A stretch of DNA of 55,754 nucleotides from Candidatus Omnitrophota bacterium (lineage in GTDB: Bacteria; Omnitrophota; Gorgyraeia; Aquiviventales; Aquiviventaceae): assembly GCA_023247215.1 (NCBI GenBank), contig JAHFGX010000003.1, forward strand, positions 1-55,754, written 5' to 3'. The position numbers were made by a program, and so were the translations under genes. This document shows positions 30,407-55,488 of this stretch, in pieces (the stretch's first letter is position 1; every line of letters starts with the position of its first letter). Below the pieces are notes generated by a model. The model ran no database searches. It saw nothing but the letters and a program-made list of their open reading frames with translations, and was not told the origin of the DNA.

Positions 30407-30739
30407 ATGACGTCGGACGAAGTCGTGGTCTTCGTGACCTGCCCGCGCGGCCGGGTCGCGCAGCGATTAGCGACGGTCGTCGTGACCAAGCGCCTGGCCG
30501 CCTGTGTGAACATCGTGCCCGCGGTGCGCTCCGTGTTCCGGTGGCAAGGGAACGTGGATCAGGCGGAGGAGGCGCTGCTGCTGATCAAGACCACCGCCCG
30601 CCGGTTTCCAGCGCTGTCTCGAGCCATCAAAGCGGCCCATCCCTATGACGTGCCGGAGATTATCGCCCTGCCGATCACGCAGGGGTTGGCTCCGTATCTG
30701 GCGTGGGTGTCATCGAGCGTCGCCCTCACCACACGATAA
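30407..30739 (+). CDS. cutA: Divalent-cation tolerance protein CutA
   Basis: RLAACVN, SVFRWQG, LIKT, HPYDVPEI. Confidence 0.95.
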   Translation: MTSDEVVVFVTCPRGRVAQRLATVVVTKRLAACVNIVPAVRSVFRWQGNVDQAEEALLLIKTTARRFPALSRAIKAAHPYDVPEIIALPITQGLAPYLAWVSSSVALTTR

Positions 30740-31811
30740 ACATTCGGATCGCCGTCCAATATAGCCAGAGGAGGGGATTACCCAAGTACCGTAAGACCGG
30801 GTTGTCAATTTCCGAAAACAAAATCCTTCCCTCGAATTTCCCCACGATTTCTTTGTCTTTCCTGGCGCGCAGATGGCCGATCTCTTTTCGGCGCGCCCTG
30901 ATCAGCCGCCAGGTGTCGGGCGCCAGGAAGTGCCGCCACAGCCGCACGCGAACTTGCCCCCAGCCTTTCGCGAGGAAAAAGATGCTCATGACCGCTTCTG
31001 AGAAGACCAGGCAGGGCAAGATCAAGACGAGCGTGCGCAGCTTTTCAAGCGTGAAGATCGTCATGAGGCGGTTGCGGTCCAGGTAGAAGAGCATGTCGAG
31101 CGGTTTGGGGAAGGTGTATTTGTGGTGGCAGATGGAGGCGTCCACCACCCCGACGTTGTATCCGGCAAGCCGGGCCCGCCAGCAAAACTCCAAATCGTCG
31201 TGGTACATGAAGTACTCGTCCCGAAAGAGCCCGATGTGCTCGAAGACCTGCCGTTTCACCAGCATGGCCGCCCCGCTGACGTAATCCCCCGGCAGGGCGG
31301 TGGGCACGGGACTGTTTTCTTGCCCGTAGTTGTCGCAATAGCCATACCCAAGGAATTGGATCCGGTTGCCGAGGGAGTTGATGCGGGTGGTGCCGTGCAG
31401 CAGGATCTTGGATTGCAGGATGTGGAGATCCGGGCAGTCATCCGCGGCCTTCACCAGGGTTTCCAGCCAGTACGGATCCACCACGGTGTCCATGTTCAGC
31501 AGCACCAGATATTCGAATCCCTCGGCCAGCGCCACCTTGAGGGCCCGGTTGTTTCCGCCGCTCCATCCGAGGTTGCGGGCGTCGTCAAAAAAGCGAGCGG
31601 TCGGCGCAATGTGCGCGGCGAGCTGGGTTCCGGCTTCCGTGGCCTCGTTGTTGATGATGAAGACGGCGAAGTATTCTTGCGGGTAGGTTTGGGCGCAGAG
31701 GCTCGCGTAGCACTCGGCGAGGTACCGTTGCGCGTAGTCCCCGTGGTTCACGAGGATCACGGCGGCCCGGGGCCGCATCACTACGCCATTCCCATTGGTT
31801 TCGGCGCCCAT
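30726..31811 (-). CDS. Glycosyltransferase family 2
   Basis: NLGWSGGNN, LLNMD, SGAAML, YFMYHDDLEFCWR. Confidence 0.88.
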   Translation of the reverse strand: MGAETNGNGVVMRPRAAVILVNHGDYAQRYLAECYASLCAQTYPQEYFAVFIINNEATEAGTQLAAHIAPTARFFDDARNLGWSGGNNRALKVALAEGFEYLVLLNMDTVVDPYWLETLVKAADDCPDLHILQSKILLHGTTRINSLGNRIQFLGYGYCDNYGQENSPVPTALPGDYVSGAAMLVKRQVFEHIGLFRDEYFMYHDDLEFCWRARLAGYNVGVVDASICHHKYTFPKPLDMLFYLDRNRLMTIFTLEKLRTLVLILPCLVFSEAVMSIFFLAKGWGQVRVRLWRHFLAPDTWRLIRARRKEIGHLRARKDKEIVGKFEGRILFSEIDNPVLRYLGNPLLWLYWTAIRMFIVW

Positions 31812-31812
31812 C

Positions 31813-33015
31813 TTATTGCGTCATCGCGTGGCGCAGATGGGCGCGGAGCCGATGGCCTGCATGCTCTGCCGTCCAGAATTCCCTGACGGCTTCCACACCA
31901 CGTTCGCCCAGCCAGGCGCGTCGCGCCCCGTCTCTCAGCAAGGTGGAGATGGCATTCGCGAACACGCCTTCATTCCGGTCGGTCAGCACGCCGGTCTCGC
32001 CGTCCACGATCGCCTCTTGGAACCCGCCTTCTTTCACCGCGACGACCGGTGTTCCGCACGCCATGGCCTCGAGCGGCGCGAGGCCGAACGGCTCAAGATG
32101 CGGGGCGTACACAAACAATCGGGCCCGATTGTGCAGTTGGACTAATTCGTCGTCAGAAGGCAAGACCCGAAGATCCAAGCGCACGTCCTGCTCCTTCGCC
32201 AGCCGCTGGAGGTAACGTTGCCAGGGCCAATACACAGCGTTTGAAGCGATCACGAGCCGTGGTCGTCTGCTGGGTTCAAGCAGGCCGAGCGCTTTCACGA
32301 GGAACTCATAGCCTTTTGACAGTCCCAGGTGCCCGACGGAGAGGACATAGTTCTCACGTGGCAAGTTTAGCGGACGAAAGGTTTCGGTATCGATTCCTAA
32401 GTAGCAGACAGTCGCGTTGACGCCATAGGCGCGGGAAATAACCTCTTTGGAGAAATGAGAGTTGGCGAGGATGTGTTTCGCATGAAGCGCATTCTGCCGG
32501 TCGATTGGAGGAACCTTTCGTCCAGCATACCAGAACCCAAGGCGGCGTGCCAGGCCCGTCACCCCTCGATACGACTGGCTCAATGTTCTGAGAATCGCTT
32601 CATTGAAGCGGCACGGTTGTTGACAGTAATAGATGTGCGGGGTGTCGAGGAATTTGAGGAGGAATGGCGACATCGTATAACGGTCTTGCTCGATCAACGC
32701 GATGTCGTACTCGCCGCCATCGATCGCCGCGGCCATCCGCTTCTGCGTTCGCTCGAGGTCGGCCAGTGGATACCGGTACGATCCGAGCGGCGGGAGATGC
32801 CTGATCGTGGAGGTGAAGGCTCCTCCGAGCGTTGGCTGCACGGGAAACACCCGCACCGTGCGCGCCCAGGTTTTCAAGCTGAGGAACCCCTCATCGGCCG
32901 TGGAGGGGATGAAGACATCGACGACCCAGCCTGCCTGCGCGAAGTGCTTGACGAATCCATGAAGGGCTCGCTTGGCTCCCCCGGACGGCAGGTTATGGAA
33001 AACCGCCACCTTCAT
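31813..33015 (-). CDS. Glycosyltransferase family 4
   Basis: SGGAKR, ANSHFS, EPFGLAPLEAMACGTPVV. Confidence 0.9.
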   Translation of the reverse strand: MKVAVFHNLPSGGAKRALHGFVKHFAQAGWVVDVFIPSTADEGFLSLKTWARTVRVFPVQPTLGGAFTSTIRHLPPLGSYRYPLADLERTQKRMAAAIDGGEYDIALIEQDRYTMSPFLLKFLDTPHIYYCQQPCRFNEAILRTLSQSYRGVTGLARRLGFWYAGRKVPPIDRQNALHAKHILANSHFSKEVISRAYGVNATVCYLGIDTETFRPLNLPRENYVLSVGHLGLSKGYEFLVKALGLLEPSRRPRLVIASNAVYWPWQRYLQRLAKEQDVRLDLRVLPSDDELVQLHNRARLFVYAPHLEPFGLAPLEAMACGTPVVAVKEGGFQEAIVDGETGVLTDRNEGVFANAISTLLRDGARRAWLGERGVEAVREFWTAEHAGHRLRAHLRHAMTQ

Positions 33016-34226
33016 GCGCGCGCGGTTTCCTCGTAGGTCCGAAGCGTCTCCCGGGCGGTCCGGTCCCAGGAAAACTGCTGGGCGCGCTGCTGACCCTTCT
33101 GCCCGAGCGCATCTCGAAGAGACTCGTTAGTAAGCAGTTGGTGCAGGGCGCCGGCTAGCGCTTCCGGGTCTTCAGGATTGACCGCCAGGCCCGCGTCGCC
33201 GATCACCTCTGGAAGCGAGGAGACGTTCGAAGTAACCACTGGGATCCCGCAGGCCATTGCCTCGAGCACGGGCAAGCCGAACCCTTCATACAGCGAGGGG
33301 TACACGAACACCGAGGCCCCGTTGTAGAGCTGGGGCAAATCCTGCTCGTCAACTGCTCCGGTGAGGACGATCGCGGATCGGAGCGGCGAGCGCTCAATTC
33401 GGCGATAGATCTCCTGGGTTTTCCATCCCGGAGCTCCCACAAGCACCAGGGGGGCCGGGGGGCGGCCGAGCCGGTGCGCCAAGCGCTCACACGCCTCAAT
33501 GAGCCGTGCAAGGTTCTTTCGCGGCTCAATGGTTCCCACGTAGAGGAGATAGCCCGGGGAGAGGTGATATCGGGAGAGCGTCGGCAAGATCTCTGCGTGA
33601 GTCAGAGGCCGGTAGCGGGTCGGATCGCACCCTGGGTAAATCACGCGGATGCGTTCGGGCGGGATGCCGTACTGCGTGATCAGATCGCGCTTCGTGTGCT
33701 GGGAGATGGCAATCACTGTGTGCGCTCGTGTCTTTGCAAACGTGAGTTTCCGAGCGTGTAATTGGATGTTGCCGTGGGTGTGGAATTTGGGGAAGAGCAG
33801 GGTGGTGAGGTCACACACGGTGACAACATGTTTCCCATCCCTGGGGCCCCATAAGAGGAGTTCTGATGAGTGAAAAATATCCAGGTCAGCCAGGCGAGGT
33901 TTGATATGGTAATGGAACCAGAAACGCACCCAGGCGTGAGTGATTGGTCTGAACCATTGCTTGACGGATGCTGGAGTTCTCCGGGTCAGTACGGAGGACC
34001 TCGGCGGAAGGGCCTGGCGACAGGAGATGCGGCGCAACCTCGATGCCAGGGAAGGGTCTGAGGAGGGAGGGATCGGCACCTCTTCTGGCAGAAGGGAAAT
34101 CAGGATATAGCGGTTACTCACATCGATCCGCAGAAGCGCCTCAACCAAGCAACGGGTGTACCGCGGCACGCCTCCCATTCCTGCGGATGCCGGGGTCACG
34201 TCGATTCCGATCTTCAAGGGGCGCAT
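33012..34226 (-). CDS. Glycosyltransferase family 4 (mannosyltransferase-like)
   Basis: [41 protein letters not shown]. Confidence 0.92.
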
Positions 34227-34271
34227 CGGCCTTGGAGTGTCCTGGGTGGTGTTGCCTAACCTGACCGGCCA

Positions 34272-34305
34272 TGTTAGAATTCCAGCAGGTAAATTTCTTA
34301 TTATA
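34272..34305. promoter_or_regulatory. Closely spaced opposite-strand -10 boxes for the flippase and GT4 operons
   Basis: + strand TG-T-TAGAAT (34272-34280); - strand TATAAT (34300-34305) in an AT-rich gap. Confidence 0.45.
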
Positions 34306-34347
34306 GCTCGTTGTCATCTGCGATAGCGCGAAATTACATCATCAGCG

Positions 34348-35874
34348 ATGGTCCCGTTCACGCATCAAGGTACCGGATTAGCCAGCCACTCCCCGCTGCC
34401 GGCCCGAATCGATCGTCAGGTGTGTGGGATGCTCTGCGCCCAGGCGGTTGAGAAACTCATCCTTGCCGTCTGTGGTATCGTGCTCATGCGCCTGCTCTCG
34501 CCGGTTGATATGGGTATGATGGGGCTCGGGTTGCTGTTAGTGGGACTTCTCAACTCCGTCGGGATCGGCATCGAAACAGCGGCCGTTCAGCTCCGCACGC
34601 CACGTGATCGCCGGATGCTCTTCAGCGCGTCTCTGGTACGCCTTATGGTCGGGATCGTTCTGTTTCTCCTCATCGTGACAGCCAGCGATCCCGTGGTGAG
34701 GTTCTTCGCTCACACCGTGGTCCCACACGCCGTCCTGAAGCGAGTGACCCGGATCGTCGCGGTATTGCTCGTGACCGAGGCCCTGTGCTGTTACCCGAGA
34801 GTTCTGCTGCAGCGCCAACTCCGATTCGGCCCGTTAGCAGTCGCGCAAGACCTGTCAGCGGCGTGTTATTCCATCTGCGCCGTGGTGCTCGCCTGGCAGG
34901 GTTATGCGTATTGGAGCTTGGTGTACGCGCTCCTGGCTTCCCAGGCATGTTTGGTCTTCTGTCTCTGGACCGTTGCCTGCCGAGAGCGACTGGCTCCGCG
35001 GTGGGATTACCATGCTGTGAGGAGGCTCTTCGCGTATGGCCGGCACGTCAGCAGTGCGGCGATTCTGGCGGCACTGACGACAAAACTCGGTGAGCTCATG
35101 GTGAGTCGCTGGTTTGGGACGGCAGCGTTGGGTGTATACCTGACGGGGTCGGCGTGGGCGAAATGGACTGATCTCAACGTGACCAATGTAGTCAGCCGCG
35201 TACTGTTTCCCAGGTACGTGCAACTGAGCGAGGAGGGAGAACGACTACGTGAGAGTGTGGAGCGGGCGCTCTTTTACGTGTACGCGTTGGTCTTGCCGAT
35301 CATCGGTGTGCTGGCTCTGTTTGTGTTAGACATCACGCACACGCTGCTTGGCTCACAGTGGCGGGTGATCTCCGAGCCGGTGAAGATTCTTTCCATTGCT
35401 GGGATGATGGGGCCGTTCATTAATCTCTACGGACACGCCTTGCTCGCCAGTGGTCGGCCGGAGTTGGTTCAAAAGTACTCCAAACTACATCTCATGCTCT
35501 TTGCGGGAGCTGTGTATCCGGCTGCGCAGATCGGCGGGCTCTTCGGAGTTTGTTGGGCGGCAGTACTCGCCGACCTTGGCGTGGTGGTGGCCGTGTCCCA
35601 GATGGGCAGGGAGGTGTTGGGCATTCAGCCGCATCGGGCGATTCGTGCGATTGCCGCACCTCTTGGATCGCTGATCGGGGCTGGAGGGCTCGCAGGGCTT
35701 CTGAGGGCGTTGTGCCCCGTGTCAAATGTGTCCACGTTGAGCTTGGAGGTTGGGTGTTTTCTTGGAATGTTCATCGGGATCTTGAACGTGTTGACCAGAG
35801 GCCGCGTGTTTCGGGAAGCACATGCTCTGCTGCGGCCAGTAGCCGCTCCATCGGTTTCCGGAACTGTCGCATGA
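34348..35874 (+). CDS. Wzx/WzxC-type oligosaccharide flippase
   Basis: About 12-14 hydrophobic segments; RLLSPVDMG, LQRQLRF, YWSLV, GTAALGVY, VLFP motifs. Confidence 0.8.
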   Translation: MVPFTHQGTGLASHSPLPARIDRQVCGMLCAQAVEKLILAVCGIVLMRLLSPVDMGMMGLGLLLVGLLNSVGIGIETAAVQLRTPRDRRMLFSASLVRLMVGIVLFLLIVTASDPVVRFFAHTVVPHAVLKRVTRIVAVLLVTEALCCYPRVLLQRQLRFGPLAVAQDLSAACYSICAVVLAWQGYAYWSLVYALLASQACLVFCLWTVACRERLAPRWDYHAVRRLFAYGRHVSSAAILAALTTKLGELMVSRWFGTAALGVYLTGSAWAKWTDLNVTNVVSRVLFPRYVQLSEEGERLRESVERALFYVYALVLPIIGVLALFVLDITHTLLGSQWRVISEPVKILSIAGMMGPFINLYGHALLASGRPELVQKYSKLHLMLFAGAVYPAAQIGGLFGVCWAAVLADLGVVVAVSQMGREVLGIQPHRAIRAIAAPLGSLIGAGGLAGLLRALCPVSNVSTLSLEVGCFLGMFIGILNVLTRGRVFREAHALLRPVAAPSVSGTVA

Positions 35875-35907
35875 GACGTTCCGCGGTCGTTGAGTGGGAC
35901 TAACTCC

Positions 35908-36915
35908 ATGTCGTTGGTCAGCGTCATTGCGCTCAATTGGAATCGGAAGGAGTTGCTTCGCGAGTGTCTTGAGTCGCTCGAGCGTCAAACGTTTCGGGAT
36001 CTCGAGGTCATCGTTGTGGATAATGGGTCAACCGATGGCTCCGTCGAGTTGGTACGGCAGCGCTTTGCCTGGACGCGGCTCGTGTCGCTTCCGCACAACT
36101 GCGGGTTTTCTGGCGGGAACAATATCGGGATCCGTCATGCCACGGGCACCTATATCGCCCTGTTGAGCAACGATGTGGTGGCATCTCCTGGGTGGCTCAC
36201 GGCCCTCGTCTCCACGATTGAGAAGTATCCGGAGGTTGGGTTCTGTGCGTCAAGGATCCTCTTCTATGATCAGCCGGAGCTTCTGAACAGTACTGGGATT
36301 CTCTATTTTCCAACGGGGGAGGCAATTGATCGCGGGTGGATGCAAATGGATGGGCCTCAGTTTAGTCAACCTGATTACCCAATCGGGGCCTGTGCCGCCG
36401 CCGCCCTCTATCGGCGCGCGATGCTGGAGGAGATTGGTCTGTTTGATGAGGAGTTTTCACCTGCCTACTACGAAGACGTGGACTTAAGCCTTCGCGCCCA
36501 GCTCCGGGGCTATCGTTGTGCGTATGTACCCGCGGCGGTCGTCCACCATCGCTTTGCCTCCACCATGGGGTACCGATCGCCTGAGCATGTCTACTTATGC
36601 GAACGCAATCGCTGGTATGCCCTCATCAAGAACGTCCCATTGCGGACCCTCATCAAATACGGACGGGTGATCGTAACCATCGCCAGACGGCGGCGCGTTG
36701 ATCACGTTCGTGCAGGGGAAGGGAGACCATTTGTGTCGGGACAACTGGCCGCGTTGCGCAAGCTTCCTCTCATGATGAGGAAGCGACGAGAAATCCAGCG
36801 GCGTCGCACCATCTCCGCCCGAGAGTTTGAAGCGTTACTCACCGTTCAACCTCAACCACTGCCTTCTCAAGCGCGCGTTCCAGGTTCTGGCGGGCCTCAG
36901 CCGAATCAGGCTTGA
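35908..36915 (+). CDS. Glycosyltransferase family 2
   Basis: VIALNWN, VDNGSTDGS, NCGFSGGNN, YYEDVDLSLR; alternative TTG start at 35890. Confidence 0.9.
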   Translation: MSLVSVIALNWNRKELLRECLESLERQTFRDLEVIVVDNGSTDGSVELVRQRFAWTRLVSLPHNCGFSGGNNIGIRHATGTYIALLSNDVVASPGWLTALVSTIEKYPEVGFCASRILFYDQPELLNSTGILYFPTGEAIDRGWMQMDGPQFSQPDYPIGACAAAALYRRAMLEEIGLFDEEFSPAYYEDVDLSLRAQLRGYRCAYVPAAVVHHRFASTMGYRSPEHVYLCERNRWYALIKNVPLRTLIKYGRVIVTIARRRRVDHVRAGEGRPFVSGQLAALRKLPLMMRKRREIQRRRTISAREFEALLTVQPQPLPSQARVPGSGGPQPNQA

Positions 36916-38479
36916 GCCGGACGGCTTCGGAGAACTGCGTGGCGGCTTCTACGAAGCGGTGCTGCTCTGCCAGGAGGACGCCGAGGTTGTTGTGGGCGTT
37001 CGCCAAGTCAGGCTGAAGCCTGAGCGTCTCGGTGTAGTGTCTCATGGCTTCTTGGGTATTTCCTTGCAGCCCAAAGACCATCGCCAGGTTGTAGTACGGT
37101 TCGGGGGCCTCAGGGGAGAGCTGAATGGCGTAGGTCAGGTGGGCCACGGCCTCATCGAGTCTGCGCTCTCGAGCCAGCGCCTTCGCCAGGTTGATATGAG
37201 CGCGCGGGTTGTTAGGGCGCTTGGCCACCGTATCGCTCCAAATGGAAAGATTGCTGTGATAATCAGCGTTTCGAAGAGCCGTGGCCAATCCTAGCGCGGC
37301 CACGCTGCCGACGACTAGAGCCGCTGACAGCGCGTGCCGTCGGCGAGGGTGGCGAGGCAAGAAACGCATAGAGAGCTCATACATGCCCAGGACGATTCCC
37401 GTGAGAACCGCAGCGAGGGGTAGGTACATTCGATATTCAGAGATCAGATCCGCGAGGGGGATAACGCTGGACGTGGGGGCCAAGATCAGGAAGAACCAAA
37501 CCCCCAAGAAACTGAGCGGCCGGTGACGCCGCCATCCCCACGCCGTTAACAGCAACGCGCTGCCAACCAACGAAGCGGGAAGCGCAATCTCTCTCAAGCT
37601 TCTCGCCGCCGGCCAGACGTAATCGAAGCAGAGGGGGTGCGGCCAGAGGGCCAGGCGAACATAGTGCACGAGAATGCCAGGCTGGGTCATGGCGTACGAC
37701 AGCGGCGTAAGACCAGGGATGCCAAATCCTGCCGAAGGATTCGCCATGGGGTGGATCTGCCGCAGGAGCAGAGGCGGGAGACTGCAGGTCACGACCAAGC
37801 CAAGGTAGAGCGTTCCACGATGGCGGAGTGCCTCCATGGTTGATCGGGCCAGGAAGCAACGGTCATACAGCAGCACCATCAGCGGGGCGGTGATCATGAC
37901 GGGTTTGCTCCCCATGCCGAGTGCGCATGAGACGACGGCCGCCGCATACCATCCCCAGCGGTAGGTGGCACCGCTGCCTCGCAAGACGCAATACAGGGTC
38001 AGGAGGTAGAAGAGCCCCATAAGCGACTCCGCCCGTTGCGTGAGGTAGGTCACGCTCTGGGTCTGGAGGGGGTGGGCCACCCAGAGCAACGCCACCGCCA
38101 ACGCGAGCCACGGAGCCGCGTGTCCGTAGCGGGCCCGCAGGCGCTCGCTCAGGAATGTCCGTCGGACGAGGCCAAAGAGCGCCAGGGCCGTCAGGACATG
38201 GATCACCAGGTTGACGACGTGGTATCCCCACACGTTGAGGCCGCCGAGGGCGTCATTGAAGGCGAACGACAGCTCCACCGTCGGCCGATGCGTGCCAGTC
38301 AGGAGCCACCCCATCGGCCAGGGGTGGCGGACATTGGGATTGTCGCGGATGACATGGTAGTCATCGAAGATGAACGGACCGGAGAAGCTGTTGTGGTACG
38401 CGGCGAGGCCGGCGATGATGATGGCCCATCCCATCTCGCGAAGCGCGGCGCGTTTCCGCTGATGACCAGCCGCTTGCAT
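36839..38479 (-). CDS. TMTC-like multi-pass membrane glycosyltransferase with C-terminal TPRs
   Basis: FIFDD loop after TM1, HRP, YHVVNLVIH, HPLQTQSVTY, SEYRMYLP, RNADY, then about 3 TPRs. Confidence 0.75.
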   Translation of the reverse strand: MQAAGHQRKRAALREMGWAIIIAGLAAYHNSFSGPFIFDDYHVIRDNPNVRHPWPMGWLLTGTHRPTVELSFAFNDALGGLNVWGYHVVNLVIHVLTALALFGLVRRTFLSERLRARYGHAAPWLALAVALLWVAHPLQTQSVTYLTQRAESLMGLFYLLTLYCVLRGSGATYRWGWYAAAVVSCALGMGSKPVMITAPLMVLLYDRCFLARSTMEALRHRGTLYLGLVVTCSLPPLLLRQIHPMANPSAGFGIPGLTPLSYAMTQPGILVHYVRLALWPHPLCFDYVWPAARSLREIALPASLVGSALLLTAWGWRRHRPLSFLGVWFFLILAPTSSVIPLADLISEYRMYLPLAAVLTGIVLGMYELSMRFLPRHPRRRHALSAALVVGSVAALGLATALRNADYHSNLSIWSDTVAKRPNNPRAHINLAKALARERRLDEAVAHLTYAIQLSPEAPEPYYNLAMVFGLQGNTQEAMRHYTETLRLQPDLANAHNNLGVLLAEQHRFVEAATQFSEAVRLKPDSAEARQNLERALEKAVVEVER

Positions 38480-38552: not shown

Positions 38553-38594
38553 TTTTATTGTCAAAACTTAAACGTTGTTAGTGTTGGCCATTCA

Positions 38595-38727: not shown

Positions 38728-38736
38728 GCACGAGAG

Positions 38737-47040: not shown

Positions 47041-48272
47041 TGCCCACCTTCCTGTATGCCGCGCGCGATCGAAGCGGCCTGGTCCAGACGGGCCATGTGG
47101 ATGCGGCCACGGAAGACGAAGTGCTGTCGGTGTTGCAAAGCCGAGGGCTGTTCGTCACGTCGGTGTCCCGGAAAGACCTTACCGCGGCCGGAGGGACGGC
47201 TTCAGGCGCGCAGCTAAAGCGCAAGCTGCATGGCCGCGTGACGACGGAAGATAAAACGATGTTCTGCGAGCAGCTTGCCACGCTGTTGGAAGCCGGGGTG
47301 CCATTATTGAGGAGCCTGCAAATCCTTTGTGACCAAGTGGAGAGCCGCCCTTTGTTGATCGCCTTGCAGGGCATTCGGCGCGACATTGAAGGCGGCAAAA
47401 CCTTCCACGAAGCTGTTGCCAAGTACCCCAAGATTTTTTCGCCGTTTTGGGTCAACGTGATCGAGACGGGGGAAGCCAGCGGGCGGCTGTTCCAGGCCAT
47501 GACCCAGCTCGTCCAATATTTGAAAACCGCTGGGGAATTGCAACGCAAAGCCGTGACGGCATTTACGTACCCTGCCGTGTTGATTGTGGCAGCGATCGGG
47601 GCCTTGTTTATTTTTGCGCTCAAGATCATCCCCATTTTCAGCGGCATGTTCAAGAGCATGAACGTCCAGTTGCCGTGGTTGACGCAGGTAATCATTTCCT
47701 TCAGCGAAGTGCTCCAGCACTATTTCCTCGTGATTGTGGTGGGCACGGCAGGGCTTGTCTACGCCGGTAAACGGGTCCTGCAGTCGGAGCCGGGACGGTG
47801 GGCGATGGATCGGCTCCTGTTGAAGCTTCCGGTGTTTAGCCCCTTGTTCACTCAAATGGAGCTGGCGCAATTTTCGCGCGGGTTGAGTTCATTATTGGAC
47901 AGCGGCGTGCCGATTCTGTTGGGGTTGGACATCATGCAGAAGAGCGCGACGAATAAGGTCTACGGCAAAGCCTTTGGAGAAATCCGAGACCACGTGCGCG
48001 AGGGGCGCCCGATGGCCCAACCGATGCAACAGGCGGGACTGTTTCCCGCGCTCATGGTCCAGATGATCCAGGTGGGCGAAGAGATCGGTGAGTTAGGAAA
48101 AATGCTGAATAAAATTGCCGTCTATTACGAGGCGCGGGTCAACGTGTTCATTGAGCGCTTGACGATCTTGTTTGAGCCAATTGCGATTATTTTCATGGCG
48201 GTGGTGGTGGGCACGCTGGTCGTGGCGATGTTCCTGCCCATCTTTAGCATGACGCAAATGACTGGGCACTAA
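47040..48272 (+). CDS. pilC: Inner-membrane platform protein (PilC/GspF)
   Basis: QLATLLEAGVP, GEASGRL, FTYP, LLDSGVP, VGEEIGEL, FEP, MFLPIF. Confidence 0.92.
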
Positions 48273-48285
48273 CAGACACATCAGG

Positions 48286-48306
48286 TATAATTTAAGGTAG
48301 TATAAT
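48286..48306 (+). promoter_or_regulatory. Tandem -10 boxes upstream of the major pilin
   Basis: TATAAT at 48286-48291 and at 48301-48306 in an AT-rich gap. Confidence 0.6.
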
Positions 48307-48428
48307 TCTCTCCAAGCATATCGAAAGGGGGTGAGGCAAGGCAAACGGGTCAGCATCGGGATGCGGAAAGTCGTGTGTTGGCTGTCTTCGTTCTTATCTA
48401 TCATGGTTATCTGACAAAGGAGTGCCTG

Positions 48429-48824
48429 ATGCGTCACCAACGTGGTTTTACGCTCCTTGAGCTTCTCATGGTCGTCATCGTCATCGGCATCTTGGCCTCG
48501 ATCGGCCTGCCGCAGTACCTGCGGGTCACCGAACGGGTGCGCGGGGTGGAAGCCATTCAAGTCTTGGGGTCGATTCGAGCCGCCCAAGGCCGCTACCGGG
48601 CCCAATCGTCCGGCGGCGCCTTTGCGACCGCGATCACCGACCTGGACACCGACGCGCCGACGATGAAGTACTGGGACACCCCCGCGGTGGGCAACTTCAA
48701 TGGGACCAGCATGCAGTTGAAGCGGACCGGCGGGACCTACGCCACGAACGTGCTGGGGATCAACTGGAGCACCGGGGATTTGTGCGGGAACTTTGTGCCG
48801 CAGGGCGGCCTCAGCGGGTGTTGA
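48429..48824 (+). CDS. Type IV major pilin, copy 1
   Basis: AAGGAG Shine-Dalgarno; MRHQRG-FTLLELLMVVIVIGILASIGLPQY; C-terminal Cys pair. Confidence 0.9.
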   Translation: MRHQRGFTLLELLMVVIVIGILASIGLPQYLRVTERVRGVEAIQVLGSIRAAQGRYRAQSSGGAFATAITDLDTDAPTMKYWDTPAVGNFNGTSMQLKRTGGTYATNVLGINWSTGDLCGNFVPQGGLSGC

Positions 48825-49291
48825 GGGACGGGGGTGTGAAGGCGGGGGTCTCCACCCTGCGCTCGAAGGTGCCAGGCGGTGTCGGGAAGGGCCTGCGCAG
48901 CTCGAGCGCAGGGTTTACGTTGCTTGAGCTCCTCATGGTCGTCATCGTCATCGGCATCTTGGCTTCCATCGGCCTGCCGCAGTACCTGCGGGTCACCGAA
49001 CGGGTGCGCGGGGTGGAAGCCATTCAAGTCTTGGGGTCGCTTCGAGTCGCCCAAGGCCGCTACCGGGCCCAATCGGCCAGCGGCGCCTTTGCGCTCGCGA
49101 TCACCGACCTGGACACCGACGCGCCGACGATGAAGTACTGGGACACCCCCGCGGCGGCCAACTTCAATGGGACCAGCATGCGGTTGAAGCGGACCAGCGG
49201 GACCTACAGCTCGAACGTGCTGGGGATCAGCTGGAGCACCGGGGATTTGTGCGGGAACTTTGTGCCGCAGGGCGGCCTCAGCGCGTGTCCG
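48447..49291 (+). repeat. Tandem duplication of the mature pilin coding sequence
   Basis: 48447-48821 aligns ungapped to 48914-49288 (offset 467 nt). Confidence 0.95.
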
Positions 49292-49294
49292 TAA
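48836..49294 (+). CDS. Type IV major pilin, copy 2 (start uncertain)
   Basis: AG-FTLLELLMVV; near-identical to copy 1; in-frame GTG starts at 48836 or 48869, no ATG leader. Confidence 0.8.
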   Translation: MKAGVSTLRSKVPGGVGKGLRSSSAGFTLLELLMVVIVIGILASIGLPQYLRVTERVRGVEAIQVLGSLRVAQGRYRAQSASGAFALAITDLDTDAPTMKYWDTPAAANFNGTSMRLKRTSGTYSSNVLGISWSTGDLCGNFVPQGGLSACP

Positions 49295-49340: not shown

Positions 49341-49413
49341 GGGGCAGTAGCTCAGCTGGGAGAGCGCGACAATCGCACTGTCGAGGCCCGGGGTTCGATC
49401 CCCCGCTGCTCCA
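49341..49413 (+). tRNA. tRNA-Ala (anticodon CGC), CCA not encoded
   Basis: Acceptor stem GGGGCAG/CTGCTCC with G3-U70, D-stem GCTC/GAGC, anticodon stem CGACA/TGTCG with loop ATCGCAC, T-loop TTCGATC. Confidence 0.95.
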
Positions 49414-49444: not shown

Positions 49445-50182
49445 GTGCGCCGCTTCGTAATTACTCCTGCCTGCATCAAGGGCGAAACGATTACCCTTGA
49501 TGACCCGAAAGAAATTCACCACCTCTCCCGTGTGCTGCGATTGGCTGTCGGGGATCGGGTTCTCTGCCTCGATGGGCAGGGGCGAGAGTATGCAGGAGTG
49601 ATTGTCCAACAAACGTTCCAACAGGTTCTCATTCACGTGGACCAGCCCCCTCGCGAGGTTTCTGCCACGCGGCTACTCTGGCTGGGGCAGGCGCTGTTGA
49701 AACACGATCGGTTTGAGTGGGTGGTCCAAAAAGCCACGGAGTTAGGCGTATCAACCATTACCCCGCTGGTGACAGCCCGCGTGATCCCTGTTCTCCTCCC
49801 TCGGCAAGCGTCACTGAAACTGGCGCGATGGCGCCGGATTGCCCAGGAAGCTGCAAAGCAGTGTGGGCGAGCCACCATCCCCTTCATCGAGCCTCCGTGT
49901 CCGTTTGAAGACGTAGTGCCGAGAATGATTGGTGAAGGGGTGGTGTTGATTCCCACGCTGGTCACCACCGCCGTGCCGATTCGAACTGTGCTGGAGGCCA
50001 ATCGTGACCCAGGGGCGGTGGCTGTCGTCATCGGCCCGGAGGGAGATTTCACGTCGGCAGAAGTCGCCCAGGCCCAAGTCCATGGTGCCCGGCCGGTCTC
50101 GTTAGGATCGCGAACGCTCCGGGCGGAAACTGCGGCCATTGCCAGCCTGGCGATGGTGAGCTACGCATTAGGGGAAGCGTGA
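49445..50182 (+). CDS. rsmE: 16S rRNA m3U1498 methyltransferase
   Basis: HHLSRVLRL, QKATELGV, EAAKQCGR, IGPEGDF, LGSRTLRAETA. Confidence 0.95.
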   Translation: MRRFVITPACIKGETITLDDPKEIHHLSRVLRLAVGDRVLCLDGQGREYAGVIVQQTFQQVLIHVDQPPREVSATRLLWLGQALLKHDRFEWVVQKATELGVSTITPLVTARVIPVLLPRQASLKLARWRRIAQEAAKQCGRATIPFIEPPCPFEDVVPRMIGEGVVLIPTLVTTAVPIRTVLEANRDPGAVAVVIGPEGDFTSAEVAQAQVHGARPVSLGSRTLRAETAAIASLAMVSYALGEA

Positions 50183-51759
50183 TGGAGGGTGGGCGAAGTG
50201 CTCGACCGGCCCAAATCTCGTGGGCGCAATGGGGAGCGTGGGGAGCATTTGCCGCATTCGCGGTCTTGTGGGCGGCTCGCTGGGCGACATTCCCCTTGGT
50301 CTTGGATCCCTACTATCATTTGTTGATCGCGCGGCAAGTCGCGGCTGCTGGGGGGCCAATCGCCTATGAATGGTGGCAAGATGCCCCGTCCGGCCGCCTC
50401 CATCTTTACCCGCCGCTCCTGCACGTGCTGCTGGCGAGCGGGTTGAAACTGGGATGTTCTGGGCTAACCGTCTTGCGGCTCGCCAGTATCACATTGGTGC
50501 TTGGGCTGATATGGAGATTGGCTCGATTCATGCAACGAATGCTGGATGATCGCGCGGCGGTGCTCGCCCTGTGCCTGGTCTGGGTGCCGTTTTCATTTCT
50601 TCTGCATGCGGCGGTGACATTGGCAGCCACTTTGGGGCTCATTGAACTGCTCTGGTACCTGGAAGCTCTTCAGAAGGGAAGGGTGCTCGCCGCGGGTGGG
50701 TTGTTTGGGTTGTTGTGGTATACCCATCTGGGTTTGCCATGGGTGGCGCTCGCCGCGACCTGCGCGTATGGATGGGTTCGACTCGATCTTCGCTGGCGGT
50801 TTGCGCAGGCCATCGGGTTGGGGATTGTGTTGGCTGCGCCGTGGTGGTGGCACCTTGCCACCCATGCGTTATGGCTGCATCCGATCCCGCGATTGGAGAA
50901 TGAACAGTTAGACTTCTCTTTACCGTTGCTCGTCCTCGCAGCTGCTGGGGTGGTCATGGGCTGGAAGGACGGGCGGGCGAGTCGCCTGCTGGTTTGCTGT
51001 TGGGCGGCGTTTGCCCTGTACGGGACGACCTATTGGTATCGATGGTGGAACGGCGAGGGCATGATGCCGTTGCTCTTGCTGGCAACCAGGGGTCTATGGG
51101 GGATTGGGCAATGGTGGCAGGCGCATGTCCGGCGTCCATCAGCGCCGGTTATCCAGATGATCTGCGTGCTGGGGTGCCTGGTATGGCCGACGCTGGTTCT
51201 CGAGCCCCATCAGGCCGCGGCCGGCGTGCCGGTGCGGGAATGGAACTGGCGATGGGCCGATACGGGCATGTTCCATCTTGTGGGATGGCCTGGCACGACG
51301 CCCAAGCCGTTAGACGTGAGCTTGGCGACGCCCGAAATGGAAAGGTTGGCGTCGCTGGTGGCGCGCGCGAGCCGGCCGGGAGAGATTCTGTGGTCCAATG
51401 CGGACTACGCCGGCGGCTTGGTGGCCGCCCTTGCCGACCGGCCGATGGCCTCCGCGATGTTTTCCGAAGTGGCCGCGTCGGTCATCGCGGATCCCGTTGC
51501 CGCCGCGCATTGGATTGTGTGGTTTAAATTGCCTGAGGCGGGGAGCGAGCACCGCCTGCGCGCGCTGGTCCAGCGGTATGGCTTGGCGCTGGCGGCCGAT
51601 ACGGACCTCGCGCTGGTCTTTCGGCATCCTGGAGGGGGACGGCTGGCGGAGCGCCCGCGCGCCGTCATTCCGTTGTGGGTTTCGGGTATGTTATTATGTG
51701 TCGTGCTTAGTGGGATCATCTGGGATTTTCATCGGCCAAACCTTTGCGGGGTGGAGTGA
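50179..51759 (+). CDS. Multi-pass membrane protein, STT3/AglB-like GT-C glycosyltransferase
   Basis: DPYYH loop followed by W...PSGR...YPPLLH; many TMs; C-terminal soluble domain with ILWSNADYAG...ADRP. Confidence 0.6.
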   Translation: MMEGGRSARPAQISWAQWGAWGAFAAFAVLWAARWATFPLVLDPYYHLLIARQVAAAGGPIAYEWWQDAPSGRLHLYPPLLHVLLASGLKLGCSGLTVLRLASITLVLGLIWRLARFMQRMLDDRAAVLALCLVWVPFSFLLHAAVTLAATLGLIELLWYLEALQKGRVLAAGGLFGLLWYTHLGLPWVALAATCAYGWVRLDLRWRFAQAIGLGIVLAAPWWWHLATHALWLHPIPRLENEQLDFSLPLLVLAAAGVVMGWKDGRASRLLVCCWAAFALYGTTYWYRWWNGEGMMPLLLLATRGLWGIGQWWQAHVRRPSAPVIQMICVLGCLVWPTLVLEPHQAAAGVPVREWNWRWADTGMFHLVGWPGTTPKPLDVSLATPEMERLASLVARASRPGEILWSNADYAGGLVAALADRPMASAMFSEVAASVIADPVAAAHWIVWFKLPEAGSEHRLRALVQRYGLALAADTDLALVFRHPGGGRLAERPRAVIPLWVSGMLLCVVLSGIIWDFHRPNLCGVE

Positions 51760-51761
51760 GG

Positions 51762-53279
51762 ATGGGAACGAAGGAAATTTTTATCAGCGCGGATCAACAG
51801 GAAACGCGGGTGGCGTTAATCGAGAATAAGCGGTTGGAAGAGTTTTACGTCGAGCGGCGGGACGACCCGCGGTTGGTCGGCAGCGTGTACAAAGGCCGCG
51901 TCGCCTCCATTGTTCCAGGCATCGGCGCGGCTTTTGTGGATATCGGGTTAGAAAAGAACGGGTTTCTCTACGTGTCGGACATTGTGGATCCGCCCGAAGA
52001 GGATGCGGTATTGGAGGCGGAAGGCGAGCCGCCTCAGGCCCGGCGCGGAGGGGGGCATGGAAACCGGCGCCGCTCCCGCATTGAGGAACTGGTGAAGCCG
52101 AACCAGGAAATCTTGGTGCAGGTGGTCAAGGAGCCGTTTGGAACCAAAGGGGCGCGCTTGACGACTCATGTCAGTCTCGCAGGCCGTTATCTGGTCTTGA
52201 TGTGCAATGATTCCCGGGTGGGGATTTCCAAGCGGATCGAAGACGGGCAGGAGCGGGCGCGGCTGCGCGAGCTCTTGGGGCGGCTGCGCGTCTCCACGGA
52301 TTCCGGATTGATCATGCGGACGGCCGGGGTGGGAAAAGGCGAAAAAGAGTTTACCCGTGACGCCCGGTATCTTTCCAGCGTGTGGCAGCAGATCAAGCGG
52401 CAAGAACAGCGCACCAAGGCCCCGGTGTGCCTGCACCAGGAGTACGAGCTGGCCTCCCGCGTGATCCGCGACAGCTTCACCGAAGACGTCCACCGGATCA
52501 TGGTGGATTCCAAGGAGGAAATCAAGAAGCTGGCACGATTCTTGCGGACGCTGATGCCCGGGGTGCGGGTCCGGCTGGACTTCTACCAGGGGGAAACCCC
52601 GTTGTTTGAGCGCGAAGGATTGGATGATCAAATCGCCGCGTTGTTTGAAAAGCGGGTGTCGCTTCCTTCCGGCGGGGGTCTGGTGATCGAGCCGACTGAA
52701 GGGTTGGTGGCGATTGATGTGAACAGCGCCCGCTTTACCGGCCGCCGCAATCTGGAAGAGACGGTGTTTCAGGTCAACAAGGAAGCCGCCGTCGAGATCG
52801 CCAGGCAGCTTCGCTTGCGGGACATCGGGGGGATCGTGGTGATTGATTTCATTGACATGGAAGACCACGATCACCGGCGACAGGTGGTCCGGCTGATGGA
52901 AGATGCCCTGAGCCGTGACCGGGCGAAGACCAATTTCGTGTCTTTCTCAGAAATCTGCGTGGCGGAGCTGACCCGCCAGCGCATGCGCCGCTCCGTGGAG
53001 ACGGTCTCCCACCAGACCTGCCCCTACTGCAACGGCCGCGGTACCGTGAAATCCGTGGTGACCATGGCCATTGACGCGATCCGGCAAGCCCAGCGCGCCC
53101 TCAAGGGCACGACCGGCAAGACGTTGGAGCTCTATGTCCATCCCCACGTGGCGGTTCGCTTACTGCAGGAGGACCGGCAGAGCTTGACCGCGCTCGAGCA
53201 GCGCTTGCGCGCTCGCATCTTGGTGATGTCCGACCCCAGTCTCCACCTGGAACAGGTCAAGGCGCAACTCGGCGGGTAG
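51762..53279 (+). CDS. rng: Ribonuclease E/G family (RNase G size)
   Basis: YKGRV, AAFVDIG, VQVVKEP...KGARLT, AIDVNS, LRDIGGIVVIDFIDM, ELTRQR, CPYCNGRG. Confidence 0.93.
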   Translation: MGTKEIFISADQQETRVALIENKRLEEFYVERRDDPRLVGSVYKGRVASIVPGIGAAFVDIGLEKNGFLYVSDIVDPPEEDAVLEAEGEPPQARRGGGHGNRRRSRIEELVKPNQEILVQVVKEPFGTKGARLTTHVSLAGRYLVLMCNDSRVGISKRIEDGQERARLRELLGRLRVSTDSGLIMRTAGVGKGEKEFTRDARYLSSVWQQIKRQEQRTKAPVCLHQEYELASRVIRDSFTEDVHRIMVDSKEEIKKLARFLRTLMPGVRVRLDFYQGETPLFEREGLDDQIAALFEKRVSLPSGGGLVIEPTEGLVAIDVNSARFTGRRNLEETVFQVNKEAAVEIARQLRLRDIGGIVVIDFIDMEDHDHRRQVVRLMEDALSRDRAKTNFVSFSEICVAELTRQRMRRSVETVSHQTCPYCNGRGTVKSVVTMAIDAIRQAQRALKGTTGKTLELYVHPHVAVRLLQEDRQSLTALEQRLRARILVMSDPSLHLEQVKAQLGG

Positions 53280-53307
53280 TCCGCCGGCGCCTTATTTTCT
53301 TTTCTCC

Positions 53308-55488
53308 ATGCCAGCCTCTCCAGCTCCAACGGCGCCTTCGCCGGCACGGTGGTGGGACACGGCACTCCTCGGCTCCCTCGTTCTGTGCGTCGGGCTGGTG
53401 GCCTATCACCTGATCCGATGGCCCATTCAGGCATGGGATACCGACCTGTGGTATCACCTCAGCGGCGGCCGGTATCTGTTTGAACATTGGGCGCTCCCCC
53501 GCGACACCTACTATTCCTTCTATTCGCCGGCCCACCCCTGGGTGGATTATTACTGGCTCTTTCAAGCTCTCGTCTATCAGATCTACTCCCACTGGAATTA
53601 CGGCGGCCTGGTGGTCTTTCGAGCCAGCATGTATCTGGTGACGTGGCTGATCATCATCCGCTATCTGCTGCAAGGCTGTCGGGTGCCATCGGCAGGCGGG
53701 TGGCTCAGCTATGTGGCGGTGTTATACGGGATCATGTTGCTGCCGCGTTCTATCCTTGTTCGTCCTCACCTGCTGAGCTACTGCTTCATCGCGACCTTCA
53801 TCTACATGTTGGAATGCCGGCCACGCCAGGCGTGGGTGCTGCCTCTCTTAGCCGTTTTGTGGTGCAATTTTCACGGGATTTACTATCCAGTGCTCCTCCT
53901 CATCAGCCTCGCCTATCTTCTGGAGCATGTCTGGGAACGCGCCATCGGCCGGCCGTACGACCGCGCTCATGCGCAACGCTTCGTAGCTCCCCTGGTATTT
54001 TCCTGTCTGGCGATCTATGTGACGCCGCACGGTGCAGCGTTATTTCCGCTTCCATTTACCCCACTCATCTATACCAAGCAGACCATCGGAGAATTTTCTT
54101 CTTTCTCTTTAACCGAGGCGTTTTCCGTCTATTTTTCTCCGCGGGCACCTAATTATCACCTTGTCGTTACGTCGCTGCTGGCCTGCGGGGTGACGGCGCT
54201 GATCGTCGCGGCGATGAGCCGTCGGCTCAGGCTGGCACATATCGTGTTGTATGCGGGGGGGCTCATATTATGGACCCAGGGAGCGCGTTTTTTGAATGAG
54301 TGCCTGCTATTGACGTTGCCCTTACTTGTGTCCGCGTATGGCCGACGGCCATCGGCAGCAGTAGCTTCCGTCTCATCGGATGCCGCGTTGAAGCCGGGCC
54401 TGGCGCCAGTTCATCTAGCTCCTTGGGCTCGAAGACCGGCAGTGCTGGTCGCCATGTTGCTGCCCCTGATGTTCTTAACACGATTTTTCTCACACCGGCC
54501 CCGCTATCCGGTGTCGCCTCAAAACCTTCCAGAAGGCGTGGCGGCATTCATGCGGCAACTTCCAACTGGAGGGACCGTCTTGAACTTTCCTAACTGCGGG
54601 GGATATCTTCGGTGGATGCTGTTCCCGCAGTATCGAATCTTCATGAATTTGGAGCTGCCGCCGTTTACGGACACCGACCTCTATGGCGCGGAGGAGGCGT
54701 TTGTCAACCAAATCAGCCTGGAGCGGCTCGTGAGCCAATATGATCCGGATTTTATCGTCGCGCCGAACGTATTGCCAAATTTTCCGCGCCTGATCACCGC
54801 GTTTCCCGAATACCAATTGGTCTTCTTTGACGACGAAGAGGTGTTGTATGCCAACCGGCGACGAGTTCAGCAGATTGCGGAACGTTATGCCATCAACGGG
54901 CTCGATCCGTTTATGTTGGCAGGCCATTTGACGGTTGGAACCTCGGAGAGCGCCGATTTGGATGTCCAGGCGCTTCGGAACAATCTGCCACGCCTGTTGG
55001 AACACTATCCGGACGGTAGAATGACCAATCATCTGGCGGCCCTGATGGCGGCCCGTCGTGGCGACTATGAGACGATGCGGCGCCACGCCGAACGGATTAT
55101 TCGCGCCTTTCCTGAAATCTCAGTCGGTTATCAGTTGGAAGGGGATGCGTGGAGGGGGGGAGGAGCCTCCTCCCAGGCGCTGGCGGCCTATCATCAGGCC
55201 TTGCGTGTCGCCAGGTCGGATGAGCACGGTCCAGTGTATGAAGCCATCGCCTGGACCTATGCTCAGCAACACCGGTATCGCGAGGCCTATAAGGCATTGA
55301 GCAAGGCCGTGGACCCGCTTTCAATCGATACTCCTCCTGAAAAATTGTACGTGCTCAGCCTCTACGCGTCATGGGGAGGGAAGAGCCGTGAGGCCAAAGC
55401 GTTCTGGCAGTTCTTGTATGACTTCAGGCTGGAGCCAACGGATCCGTTACGAGAACGAATTCGTTTATTGTTGAAGGAGCCTGCCTGA
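53308..55488 (+). CDS. Multi-pass membrane protein, GT-C-like, with C-terminal TPR-like helices
   Basis: DTDLWYHLSGGRY after TM1, WLFQ, RPHLLS, LWCNFHG, NFPNCGGYLRW periplasmic domain, helical repeats. Confidence 0.6.
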   Translation: MPASPAPTAPSPARWWDTALLGSLVLCVGLVAYHLIRWPIQAWDTDLWYHLSGGRYLFEHWALPRDTYYSFYSPAHPWVDYYWLFQALVYQIYSHWNYGGLVVFRASMYLVTWLIIIRYLLQGCRVPSAGGWLSYVAVLYGIMLLPRSILVRPHLLSYCFIATFIYMLECRPRQAWVLPLLAVLWCNFHGIYYPVLLLISLAYLLEHVWERAIGRPYDRAHAQRFVAPLVFSCLAIYVTPHGAALFPLPFTPLIYTKQTIGEFSSFSLTEAFSVYFSPRAPNYHLVVTSLLACGVTALIVAAMSRRLRLAHIVLYAGGLILWTQGARFLNECLLLTLPLLVSAYGRRPSAAVASVSSDAALKPGLAPVHLAPWARRPAVLVAMLLPLMFLTRFFSHRPRYPVSPQNLPEGVAAFMRQLPTGGTVLNFPNCGGYLRWMLFPQYRIFMNLELPPFTDTDLYGAEEAFVNQISLERLVSQYDPDFIVAPNVLPNFPRLITAFPEYQLVFFDDEEVLYANRRRVQQIAERYAINGLDPFMLAGHLTVGTSESADLDVQALRNNLPRLLEHYPDGRMTNHLAALMAARRGDYETMRRHAERIIRAFPEISVGYQLEGDAWRGGGASSQALAAYHQALRVARSDEHGPVYEAIAWTYAQQHRYREAYKALSKAVDPLSIDTPPEKLYVLSLYASWGGKSREAKAFWQFLYDFRLEPTDPLRERIRLLLKEPA

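Follow-up and report, generated by a model that had tools for sequence, protein, structure and literature searches.

Within a 55,754-bp contig of a Candidatus Omnitrophota bacterium (GenBank assembly GCA_023247215.1, contig JAHFGX010000003.1, hereafter C43), which was analyzed whole and is referred to as the window, an earlier note had described a single 25-kb island for a glycan-decorated, variable type IV filament gated by cyclic di-GMP (c-di-GMP). The gene inventory given there for 30.7-55.5 kb proved essentially right in Pfam and NCBIfam scans, including four glycosyltransferases (GTs), a flippase, an assembly ATPase with an MshEN-like domain, and housekeeping genes (tRNA-Ala, rsmE and rng) that interrupt the region. 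As to how these genes belong together, we favor, with reasonable though not high confidence, a reading in which the region comprises three separable things: a c-di-GMP-gated pilus operon, a downstream block that contains the membrane protein P0002, and an upstream glycan module. P0002 has a polytopic N-terminal domain and C-terminal tetratricopeptide repeats (TPRs), and its architecture, which matches that described for the pilin glycosyltransferase TfpW, and the family-wide adjacency to prepilin genes suggest that P0002 is a probable pilin glycosyltransferase.

The pilus operon opens with a 5' leader that carries an expression platform, in the order promoter (38523-38552), aptamer, terminator and first gene (from 38809). 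Its elements are as follows.

38523-38552, + strand: sigma-70-like promoter of the pilus operon (TTGACA, 18-nt spacer, TATACT; 11/12 matches, the best in the region)
38598-38723, + strand: c-di-GMP-I-class aptamer with an insert of ~60 nt in the first hairpin (RF03167, 32.5 bits, E 3.8e-4)
38734-38747, + strand: second copy of the aptamer 3' half, read from the sequence
38737-38767, + strand: hairpin of an intrinsic terminator, followed by a T run to 38771 (sequence and folds); its 5' arm is the second copy of the aptamer 3' half

PilB orthologues were sought in 40 relatives, with best matches of 53-71% identity in 26 genomes; 27 PilB-centred loci and their extensions were collected, and all 21 window proteins were mapped by tblastn. 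At least 2 kb of sequence upstream of the PilX-like gene was available in four relatives, namely G009 (loci L001 and L028), G015 (L007), G016 (L011 and L030) and G019 (L006 and L029). The leader is kept in 5/5 orthologous operons, comprising the window and all four relatives with upstream sequence (L001, L007, L011 and L029). The G015 leader scores 73.1 bits with RF03167 (gathering score 59) and 65.6 bits with RF01051 (gathering score 35), and the G019 leader 60.4 and 62.7 bits, respectively; a short first hairpin allows both to pass the curated scores. The window aptamer reaches 32.5 bits against the RF03167 gathering score of 59, a match seen only at relaxed thresholds, and this sub-threshold score is attributable to the insert in its first hairpin. 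At gathering level, Rfam finds in the window a tRNA only and no riboswitch, and the window aptamer is unlisted for RF01051 at E<=0.01. The proposed riboswitch is partly borne out: the orthologous leaders pass, and the copy in the window falls short. The GGC-variant model has the consensus CGC-G-AAG, as against CGC-A-AAG in these leaders. Judged from its sequence, the aptamer is real, with c-di-GMP as the predicted ligand; the c-di-GMP-I class (RF01051) and the GGC variant (RF03167) are not distinguishable here.

The 3' half of the aptamer is tandemly duplicated in 5/5 orthologous leaders, and it is the second copy that forms the 5' arm of the terminator. The paralogous aptamers of the same genome carry one copy of the 3' half only, overlapping the terminator, which is the usual layout of an ON switch. 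In a fold of the leader truncated before the 3' arm of the terminator, the central strand favors copy 2 (-69.5 versus -60.5 kcal/mol). It is possible that two alternative aptamers share one 5' half.

Aptamers of this kind are dense in this class of Omnitrophota. Across 41 genomes, 0.7-2.2 Mb in size, we detected 433 c-di-GMP-I-class matches (E<=0.01), at least one in each genome and up to 28 in a single genome of 1.7 Mb. The genome under study holds 12-15, among them C24:627-713, C48:8789-8874, C56:4229-4314, C26:17756-17841, C31:3862-3947 and C36:38907-39031, and these precede Flp-type pilins, a PilT-like operon, a response-regulator/PilB/PilC operon and other genes, as read from the length and N-terminus of the open reading frames (ORFs) alone. 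The same genome has seven GGDEF-domain matches. Literature searches on Omnitrophota c-di-GMP riboswitches found no paper on a riboswitch expansion in this phylum.

The coding part of the operon (38809-49294, + strand) was assigned by Pfam (N_methyl and PilX_N for the four pilin-like genes), NCBIfam and prepilin motifs, and contains the following genes ahead of the major pilins.

38809-39138, + strand: PilX/GspK-like gene
39140-39565, + strand: prepilin
39550-39996, + strand: prepilin with its motif from 39595, an ORF that the earlier note does not list
39951-40658, + strand: minor-pilin-like gene with a prepilin motif from 40044
40693-42369, + strand: PilM-PilN fusion (Pfam, NCBIfam; syntenic in relatives)
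42386-42898, + strand: PilO/GspM (Pfam, NCBIfam; syntenic in relatives)
42895-43545, + strand: GspC-like protein (Pfam, NCBIfam; syntenic in relatives)
43542-45248, + strand: secretin (Pfam, NCBIfam; syntenic in relatives)
45253-47040, + strand: PilB/GspE-type assembly ATPase with an N-terminal MshEN domain (T2SSE, 461.7 bits)
47040-48272, + strand: PilC/GspF platform protein (T2SSF, 192.7 bits)

Prepilins, PilM/N/O, secretin, PilB and PilC, a type IVa pilus set, are therefore all present at one locus. We read 38523-49294 as a type IVa-like pilus operon that would run from promoter, aptamer and terminator through four minor-pilin-like genes, PilMN, PilO, the GspC-like protein, secretin, PilB and PilC to the pilins. 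A Pfam scan of the window proteins revealed neither PilT nor PilD, no search aimed at PilD having been made; a 358-aa ORF behind another aptamer on contig C26 is PilT-like by its length and N-terminal sequence alone.

The MshEN domain of PilB scores well above the cut-offs of both PF05157 (58.3 bits, cut-off 23.1) and NF053729, the 'c-di-GMP-binding motif' (66.9 bits, cut-off 38). Residues 30-86 consist of two tandem 24-residue RLG/KLG...Q motifs with a 5-residue spacer, which were judged against what we take to be the MshEN consensus. PilB orthologues of 62-72% identity are present in 18 fetched loci of family and order relatives. On these sequence features, control of the filament by c-di-GMP looks real both at the leader aptamer and at the MshEN-type PilB. 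The second messenger would act twice, on transcription read-through (in an ON or OFF sense) and on the assembly ATPase, the MshEN domain of which should bind it.

Pilus genes are numerous in this genome, with at least six full-length PilB/GspE-type ATPase genes beyond the window (on contigs C25, C26, C36, C53, C56 and C31), several secretins, one Tad/Flp-type locus and a total of 15 ATPase-family matches.

Two major pilins are encoded in tandem at the end of the operon.

48375-48824, + strand: pilin2, major pilin (N_methyl)
48782-49294, + strand: ORF of pilin3, major pilin, with its prepilin motif from 48911 (N_methyl)

Pilin2 and pilin3 are identical at 114/132 residues (86%), and within our best explanation they are recent duplicates. 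With numbering from the processing-site glycine, residues 1-50 show five synonymous and three nonsynonymous differences, and residues 51-126, the globular part, show 13 nonsynonymous and no synonymous differences; several of the substitutions gain or lose Ser/Thr. The 13:0 pattern, small as the sample is, fits diversifying selection on the exposed part, as the earlier note had suspected for these paralogs.

The downstream block ends with the gene for P0002.

53308-55488, + strand: P0002, 726 aa, polytopic N-domain with an invariant DxD..H and C-terminal TPRs (TPR_2 family-wide)

Directly past the first hydrophobic segment of P0002, the topology of which is predicted, D44, D46 and H50 are invariant in 26/26 sequences, and R147, R152, H154, N187, E262 and R327 are further invariant residues of the membrane domain. 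TPR matches in P0002 itself are weak (TPR_1, E 0.0033), and TPR_2 was found in 40/40 aligned family members. The N-terminal 520 residues match nothing in Pfam, NCBIfam or the PDB, where searches returned hits to TPRs alone. Among the language-model look-alikes (Atlas) of P0002, a cluster that bears the name RgtA/B/C/D-like glycosyltransferase reaches 0.98, and clusters of PMT_2, STT3 and Dpy19 reach 0.92. A profile of the membrane domain matched 22,175 cluster representatives at E<=1e-3 and 13,004 at 1e-10, and the family is therefore very large; among the matches listed, the representative profile search returned close relatives only and no bridge to a named GT-C family. Literature searches on pilin glycosylation, on TMTC/GT-C and on Omnitrophota pili found no paper on this family.

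Such a protein might instead be a membrane/TPR accessory factor of pilus biogenesis, involved in assembly, stability or secretin handling, and the lack of any family or PDB match for its membrane domain would agree with this, as would the precedent of PilW and Tgl, which are TPR pilus assembly factors and to which P0003, a TPR protein encoded upstream of the operon, has TPR-level NCBIfam matches. We consider this explanation unlikely, given that the invariant charged residues (D44, D46, H50, R147, R152, H154, E262 and R327) form an enzyme-like pattern, that the Atlas look-alikes include a glycosyltransferase cluster and PMT_2, STT3 and Dpy19 clusters, and that the architecture equals that described for TfpW. 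As a glycosyltransferase, P0002 would most likely face the periplasm and use a lipid-linked sugar, and its TPR domain would take pilins as substrate, as in TfpW; the architecture and the family adjacency described below both point this way.

The neighborhood of P0002 homologues was surveyed at 80 loci from species-representative genomes. A prepilin-motif ORF lies <=3 kb from the homologue at 47/80 loci, figures that are counts and not a statistical test because the genomes are related and labels of metagenome-assembled genomes (MAGs) may be wrong. The median distance is 238 bp, and both genes are on the same strand in 39/47 cases. Prepilin ORFs were found at 10/13 loci of the Syntrophaceae group, 14/18 with other Deltaproteobacteria labels, 5/7 of Syntrophorhabdaceae, 4/4 of the Solidesulfovibrio type (including cultured strain L102), 9/17 of Nitrospirota, 1/2 of Elusimicrobia and 3/9 others. 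When the window proteins were searched against the 80 loci by tblastn, PilB matched at 23, PilC at 25, the secretin at 14 and a pilin2-like protein at 19, and the usual order of these pilus loci, on one strand, is secretin, PilB, PilC, pilin(s) and P0002. The density of prepilin ORFs <=3 kb of P0002 homologues is 0.201/kb, compared with 0.013/kb in the pilus-rich genome of the window; in a second control, 551 kb of loci of the TMTC-like family to which P0003 belongs, the motif occurs three times.

These controls bear on the view that all three GT-C-like genes of the region (P0001, P0002 and P0003) serve general envelope glycans, such as lipopolysaccharide, exopolysaccharide or non-pilin glycoproteins, and that they lie close to the pilus operon by accident or through synteny alone. 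The genome is gene-dense at 1.46 Mb and has at least five further PilB-type loci, so that pilus genes are common; rng-P0002 adjacency is what Omnitrophota conserve, and a different contig carries a large glycan cluster that encodes Wzy_C and PMT_2 proteins. The prepilin adjacency of the P0002 family (47/80, median 238 bp, several labelled phyla) is nevertheless far above both controls, and we regard this view as very improbable.

Several observations weigh against our interpretation of the operon and of P0002. The aptamer of the window itself is under the gathering scores of both RF01051 and RF03167, among the Rfam models the GGC variant scores best, and c-di-GMP is a predicted ligand. The 13:0 pattern of the pilins amounts to 13 changes only, with p ~0.03 by rough arithmetic (54 synonymous and 174 nonsynonymous sites, random placement). 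The membrane domains of P0002 and P0001 match nothing in Pfam, NCBIfam or the PDB, and the GT-C fold is putative for both; the Atlas look-alikes of P0002 that carry a family name score 0.92 with 139-147 features in common, below the usual same-family level. No nearby prepilin ORF exists at 33/80 P0002-family loci, and loci of the Omnitrophota type have one <=3 kb of the homologue in 1/10 cases. In the window, pilin3 and P0002 are 4.0 kb apart with four genes between them (tRNA-Ala, rsmE, P0001 and rng), and no sugar-donor pathway is tied to P0002. Given the 1/10 Omnitrophota loci and the 4.0-kb gap, the pilin linkage of P0002 here rests on housekeeping synteny and on the behavior of the family in other phyla.

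The genes between the pilins and P0002 are as follows.

49341-49413, + strand: tRNA-Ala (CGC) (ARAGORN; Rfam tRNA, 59.2 bits)
49445-50182, + strand: rsmE, 16S rRNA methyltransferase (Methyltrans_RNA, 146 bits; NCBIfam)
50179-51759, + strand: P0001, polytopic membrane protein, possible GT-C (no Pfam match)
51744-53279, + strand: rng, RNase G (RNase_E_G, 321.9 bits; TIGR00757, 485.4 bits)

The order pilus operon, rsmE, rng recurs in ten loci of relatives (L001, L002, L006, L008, L009, L011, L014 and L015, and, with rsmE only, L012 and L016). Within Omnitrophota, rng is followed by P0002 in G001, G009, G015, G020 and G022, and a P0002 homologue is located elsewhere, without pilins, in G019 and G014. 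P0001 stands between rsmE and rng in G001, G009, G019, G020 and G022, and rsmE and rng adjoin without it in G003, G011, G014, G016 and G018. We suggest that tRNA-Ala, rsmE, rng and P0002, with or without P0001, form a conserved unit.

The reading frames of rsmE and P0001 overlap by 4 bases and those of P0001 and rng by 16 bases, and P0002 starts 28 bases past rng on the same strand. Owing to this arrangement, the genes for an rRNA methyltransferase and RNase G appear to share their transcript with two membrane glycosyltransferase-like genes.

Sequence and profile searches with P0001 gave zero matches in Pfam, NCBIfam and the PDB. Weak PMT_2 matches occur in 3/26 members of its family (best E 1.6e-4), and its Atlas look-alikes are PMT_2-bearing clusters at 0.97-0.98 with 179-190 features in common. 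Of 48 P0001 homologues, three carry a source name, which in each case is Candidatus Omnitrophica. P0001 is, on this sequence evidence, an Omnitrophota-only insert between rsmE and rng and probably a GT-C-type enzyme, tied to the pilins by position only. The families of P0001, P0002 and P0003 are mutually unrelated by hhalign (E 0.035-0.061, not significant). None of the three proteins has an STT3 match in Pfam at E<=0.01, nor was one found at E<=1 among members of the P0001 and P0002 families (alignment A2, the first 25 of 53 families).

Upstream of the operon, the glycan module contains the following genes.

30726-31811, - strand: GT2a, family-2 glycosyltransferase (Pfam Glycos_transf_2, 47.8 bits)
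31813-33015, - strand: first GT4 glycosyltransferase (Pfam Glycos_transf_1, 106.2 bits)
33012-34226, - strand: second GT4 glycosyltransferase (Pfam Glycos_transf_1, 131.5 bits)
34348-35874, + strand: Wzx-type MOP flippase (Polysacc_synt_3, 164.3 bits)
35890-36915, + strand: GT2b, family-2 glycosyltransferase (Glycos_transf_2, 100.4 bits)
36839-38479, - strand: P0003, TMTC-like polytopic protein with C-terminal TPRs (PMT_2 borderline; TPR_2, E 2.3e-19)

The four glycosyltransferases had been called soluble; GT2a has hydrophobic C-terminal segments by sequence and hydropathy. P0003 scores 25.3 bits with PMT_2 in one scan and 28.9 bits in another (cut-off 26.1), and an orthologue in L034 scores 28.6 bits. 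An FxxDD motif follows its first hydrophobic segment, with F36 and D39 invariant in 16 sequences.

It has been proposed that this module and the genes downstream of the operon act together as an integrated island: the cassette would assemble a glycan for Wzx to flip, and the TMTC-like protein, P0001 and P0002 would all decorate pilins. All of the parts do lie within 25 kb, and the TMTC-like gene and the riboswitch promoter are divergent, the gene end and the aptamer being 118 bp apart. In the relatives, however, matches to the TMTC-like, GT or Wzx proteins are found upstream of the operon in 0/4 cases, and the closest TMTC-like genes (41-53% identity) are on contigs other than that of the pilus operon, next to proteases, regulators, permeases, a histidine kinase, DNA ligase and PilT-like ATPases. 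A prepilin-motif ORF is present at 0/11 loci of the close TMTC-like homologues in relatives, and at 2 of 75 metagenome loci of the TMTC family (45-57% identity, 551 kb in total), one of the 75 having PilB and PilC. The two GT4 genes have zero matches in the fetched loci, and the Wzx protein has no orthologue among the 40 relatives, the top match being 28% identical; a tblastn search of the genome itself with Wzx returned a single match and no second flippase. Moreover, housekeeping genes separate the pilins from P0001 and P0002. Support from farther afield comes from Nitrospirota, where L105, L109 and L111 place a distant TMTC-like gene among pilin-like genes beside a P0002 homologue. Taken together, the close relatives make a single integrated island quite improbable.

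In those three Nitrospirota loci the TMTC-like protein is 21-22% identical to P0003, and their layout indicates that in other phyla two different genes of the GT-C/TPR type can flank pilin genes. In another genome (G016:C36), a riboswitch that is divergent from TMTC-like genes was considered as a mirror of the window and dropped, as the genes under its control do not look like pilus genes on inspection.

Returning to three separable units, the upstream module (30726-38479) would most likely serve another envelope glycan or protein target. Orthologues of GT2a (53-54% identity) adjoin TMTC-like genes in G019 (L033) and G006 (L035). Because the GT4-GT4-Wzx-GT2 stretch (31813-36915) has no counterpart in 40 relatives and the GT2a/TMTC-like pair is contiguous in G019 and G006, it looks like a genome-specific, recently acquired glycan cassette. 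In our reading of the sequences, the cassette splits the GT2a/TMTC-like pair here, and its spot beside the pilus operon would be incidental to this genome. GT2a might make a lipid-linked donor for the TMTC-like enzyme, which we infer only.

The first 30 kb of the window hold housekeeping genes (arginine and lysine biosynthesis, ribosomal proteins L13/S9, UvrA and a TPR protein). The G+C content is ~0.66-0.68 over this part and ~0.59-0.62 from 30 kb to the contig end; since the pilus operon and rsmE-rng, which are conserved, fall within the lower part, the shift is no mark of a recent island. The assembly totals 1.46 Mb in 57 contigs and is rated 92% complete, and those homologues of window proteins that carry names come from Candidatus Omnitrophica/Omnitrophota MAGs.

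The earlier interpretation therefore holds in spirit for P0002 and c-di-GMP control. About the TMTC-like gene and the cassette it is wrong, and its word 'undescribed' is an overstatement. It had named GT-C genes unlinked to pilus loci in relatives as the outcome that would speak against it, and this is what we found for the TMTC-like part. P0002, the 'STT3-like' protein of that interpretation, belongs to a pilin-linked family, in contrast to P0003. The three GT-C-like enzymes are mutually unrelated, as had been stated; their GT-C likeness consists of a borderline PMT_2 score for P0003 and of language-model look-alikes for P0001 and P0002.

Should proteins of the P0002 type glycosylate pilins, this would give a function to a very large family that lacks annotation. 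Pilus glycosylation is known mainly from Neisseria and Pseudomonas, and its range would then take in many uncultured anaerobes, among them genome-reduced Omnitrophota that have many pilus loci. We tentatively hypothesize, with doubts that outweigh our confidence, that the P0002 family adds to TfpO/PglL and TfpW a third class of membrane glycosyltransferases dedicated to pilins, one that is very large and as yet unnamed, that pilin glycosylation is routine in anaerobic Thermodesulfobacteriota, Nitrospirota, Elusimicrobiota and Omnitrophota, and that it acts here on a doubly c-di-GMP-gated pilus with diversifying tandem pilins, possibly for phage cover or host contact. As a test case the locus is compact: a single second messenger may hit the same pilus via an RNA switch and an ATPase domain. 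With two thirds of the proposed island unlinked to the pilus, effort is saved for any future reconstitution.

Each of the elements has a relative among known systems. Animal TMTC1-4 are protein O-mannosyltransferases of the GT-C/PMT clan, and P0003 resembles them in its PMT_2-like polytopic domain, DD motif and C-terminal TPRs; unlike them, it has a PMT_2 score at the cut-off, and it is not pilin-linked in relatives. The leaders resemble c-di-GMP-I (GEMM-I) riboswitches, in that orthologous copies pass RF01051 and RF03167 and form a promoter-terminator 5' leader upstream of pilin genes, but the window copy, with its ~60-nt insert, is below both cut-offs, and the duplicated 3' half supplies the 5' arm of the terminator. 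MshE is a c-di-GMP-binding MshEN-type pilus ATPase of the MSHA pilus of Vibrio. PilB shares its N-terminal MshEN domain, above Pfam and NCBIfam cut-offs and with two tandem 24-residue motifs, whereas the operon here is of the PilMNO/secretin type with a riboswitch leader of its own, and c-di-GMP binding by PilB is predicted. The TfpO/PglL-type pilin O-oligosaccharyltransferases, of the Wzy_C family, reach the same end, a glycosylated pilin. Unlike in those systems, Wzy_C is absent from all 21 window proteins by Pfam, and the single Wzy_C match of the genome (C27:81775-82182) lies inside the large glycan cluster that also has PMT_2 proteins.

The closest comparison is with TfpW. TfpW is a 646-aa polytopic GT-C protein with 11 predicted transmembrane segments, a GT-C DDX motif within its first periplasmic loop and, at the C-terminus, a large TPR domain in the periplasm (10.1101/2020.04.19.049825). 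It is a D-arabinofuranosyl transferase required for pilin arabinosylation in group IV pilin strains of Pseudomonas aeruginosa/paraeruginosa, and its gene is immediately downstream of that of the major pilin, pilA, beside which TfpO is also encoded (10.1101/2020.04.19.049825). Measured against this description, P0002 differs in its DxD motif (DTDLWYH, in place of DDX) and in its position, since tRNA-Ala, rsmE, P0001 and rng come between it and the pilins, 4 kb away; donor genes for D-Araf, of the DprE1/DprE2 type, were not seen in the window. The architecture described for TfpW is formally also that of P0003, so that the earlier statements that no TfpW-type enzyme is clearly recognizable here and that the system is undescribed are, as regards architecture, not supported. 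P0002 shares with TfpW the acidic motif past the first hydrophobic segment, the C-terminal TPRs and a family setting beside pilin genes. On present evidence P0002 would work like TfpW, to which we liken it by architecture only and not as a member of the TfpW family.

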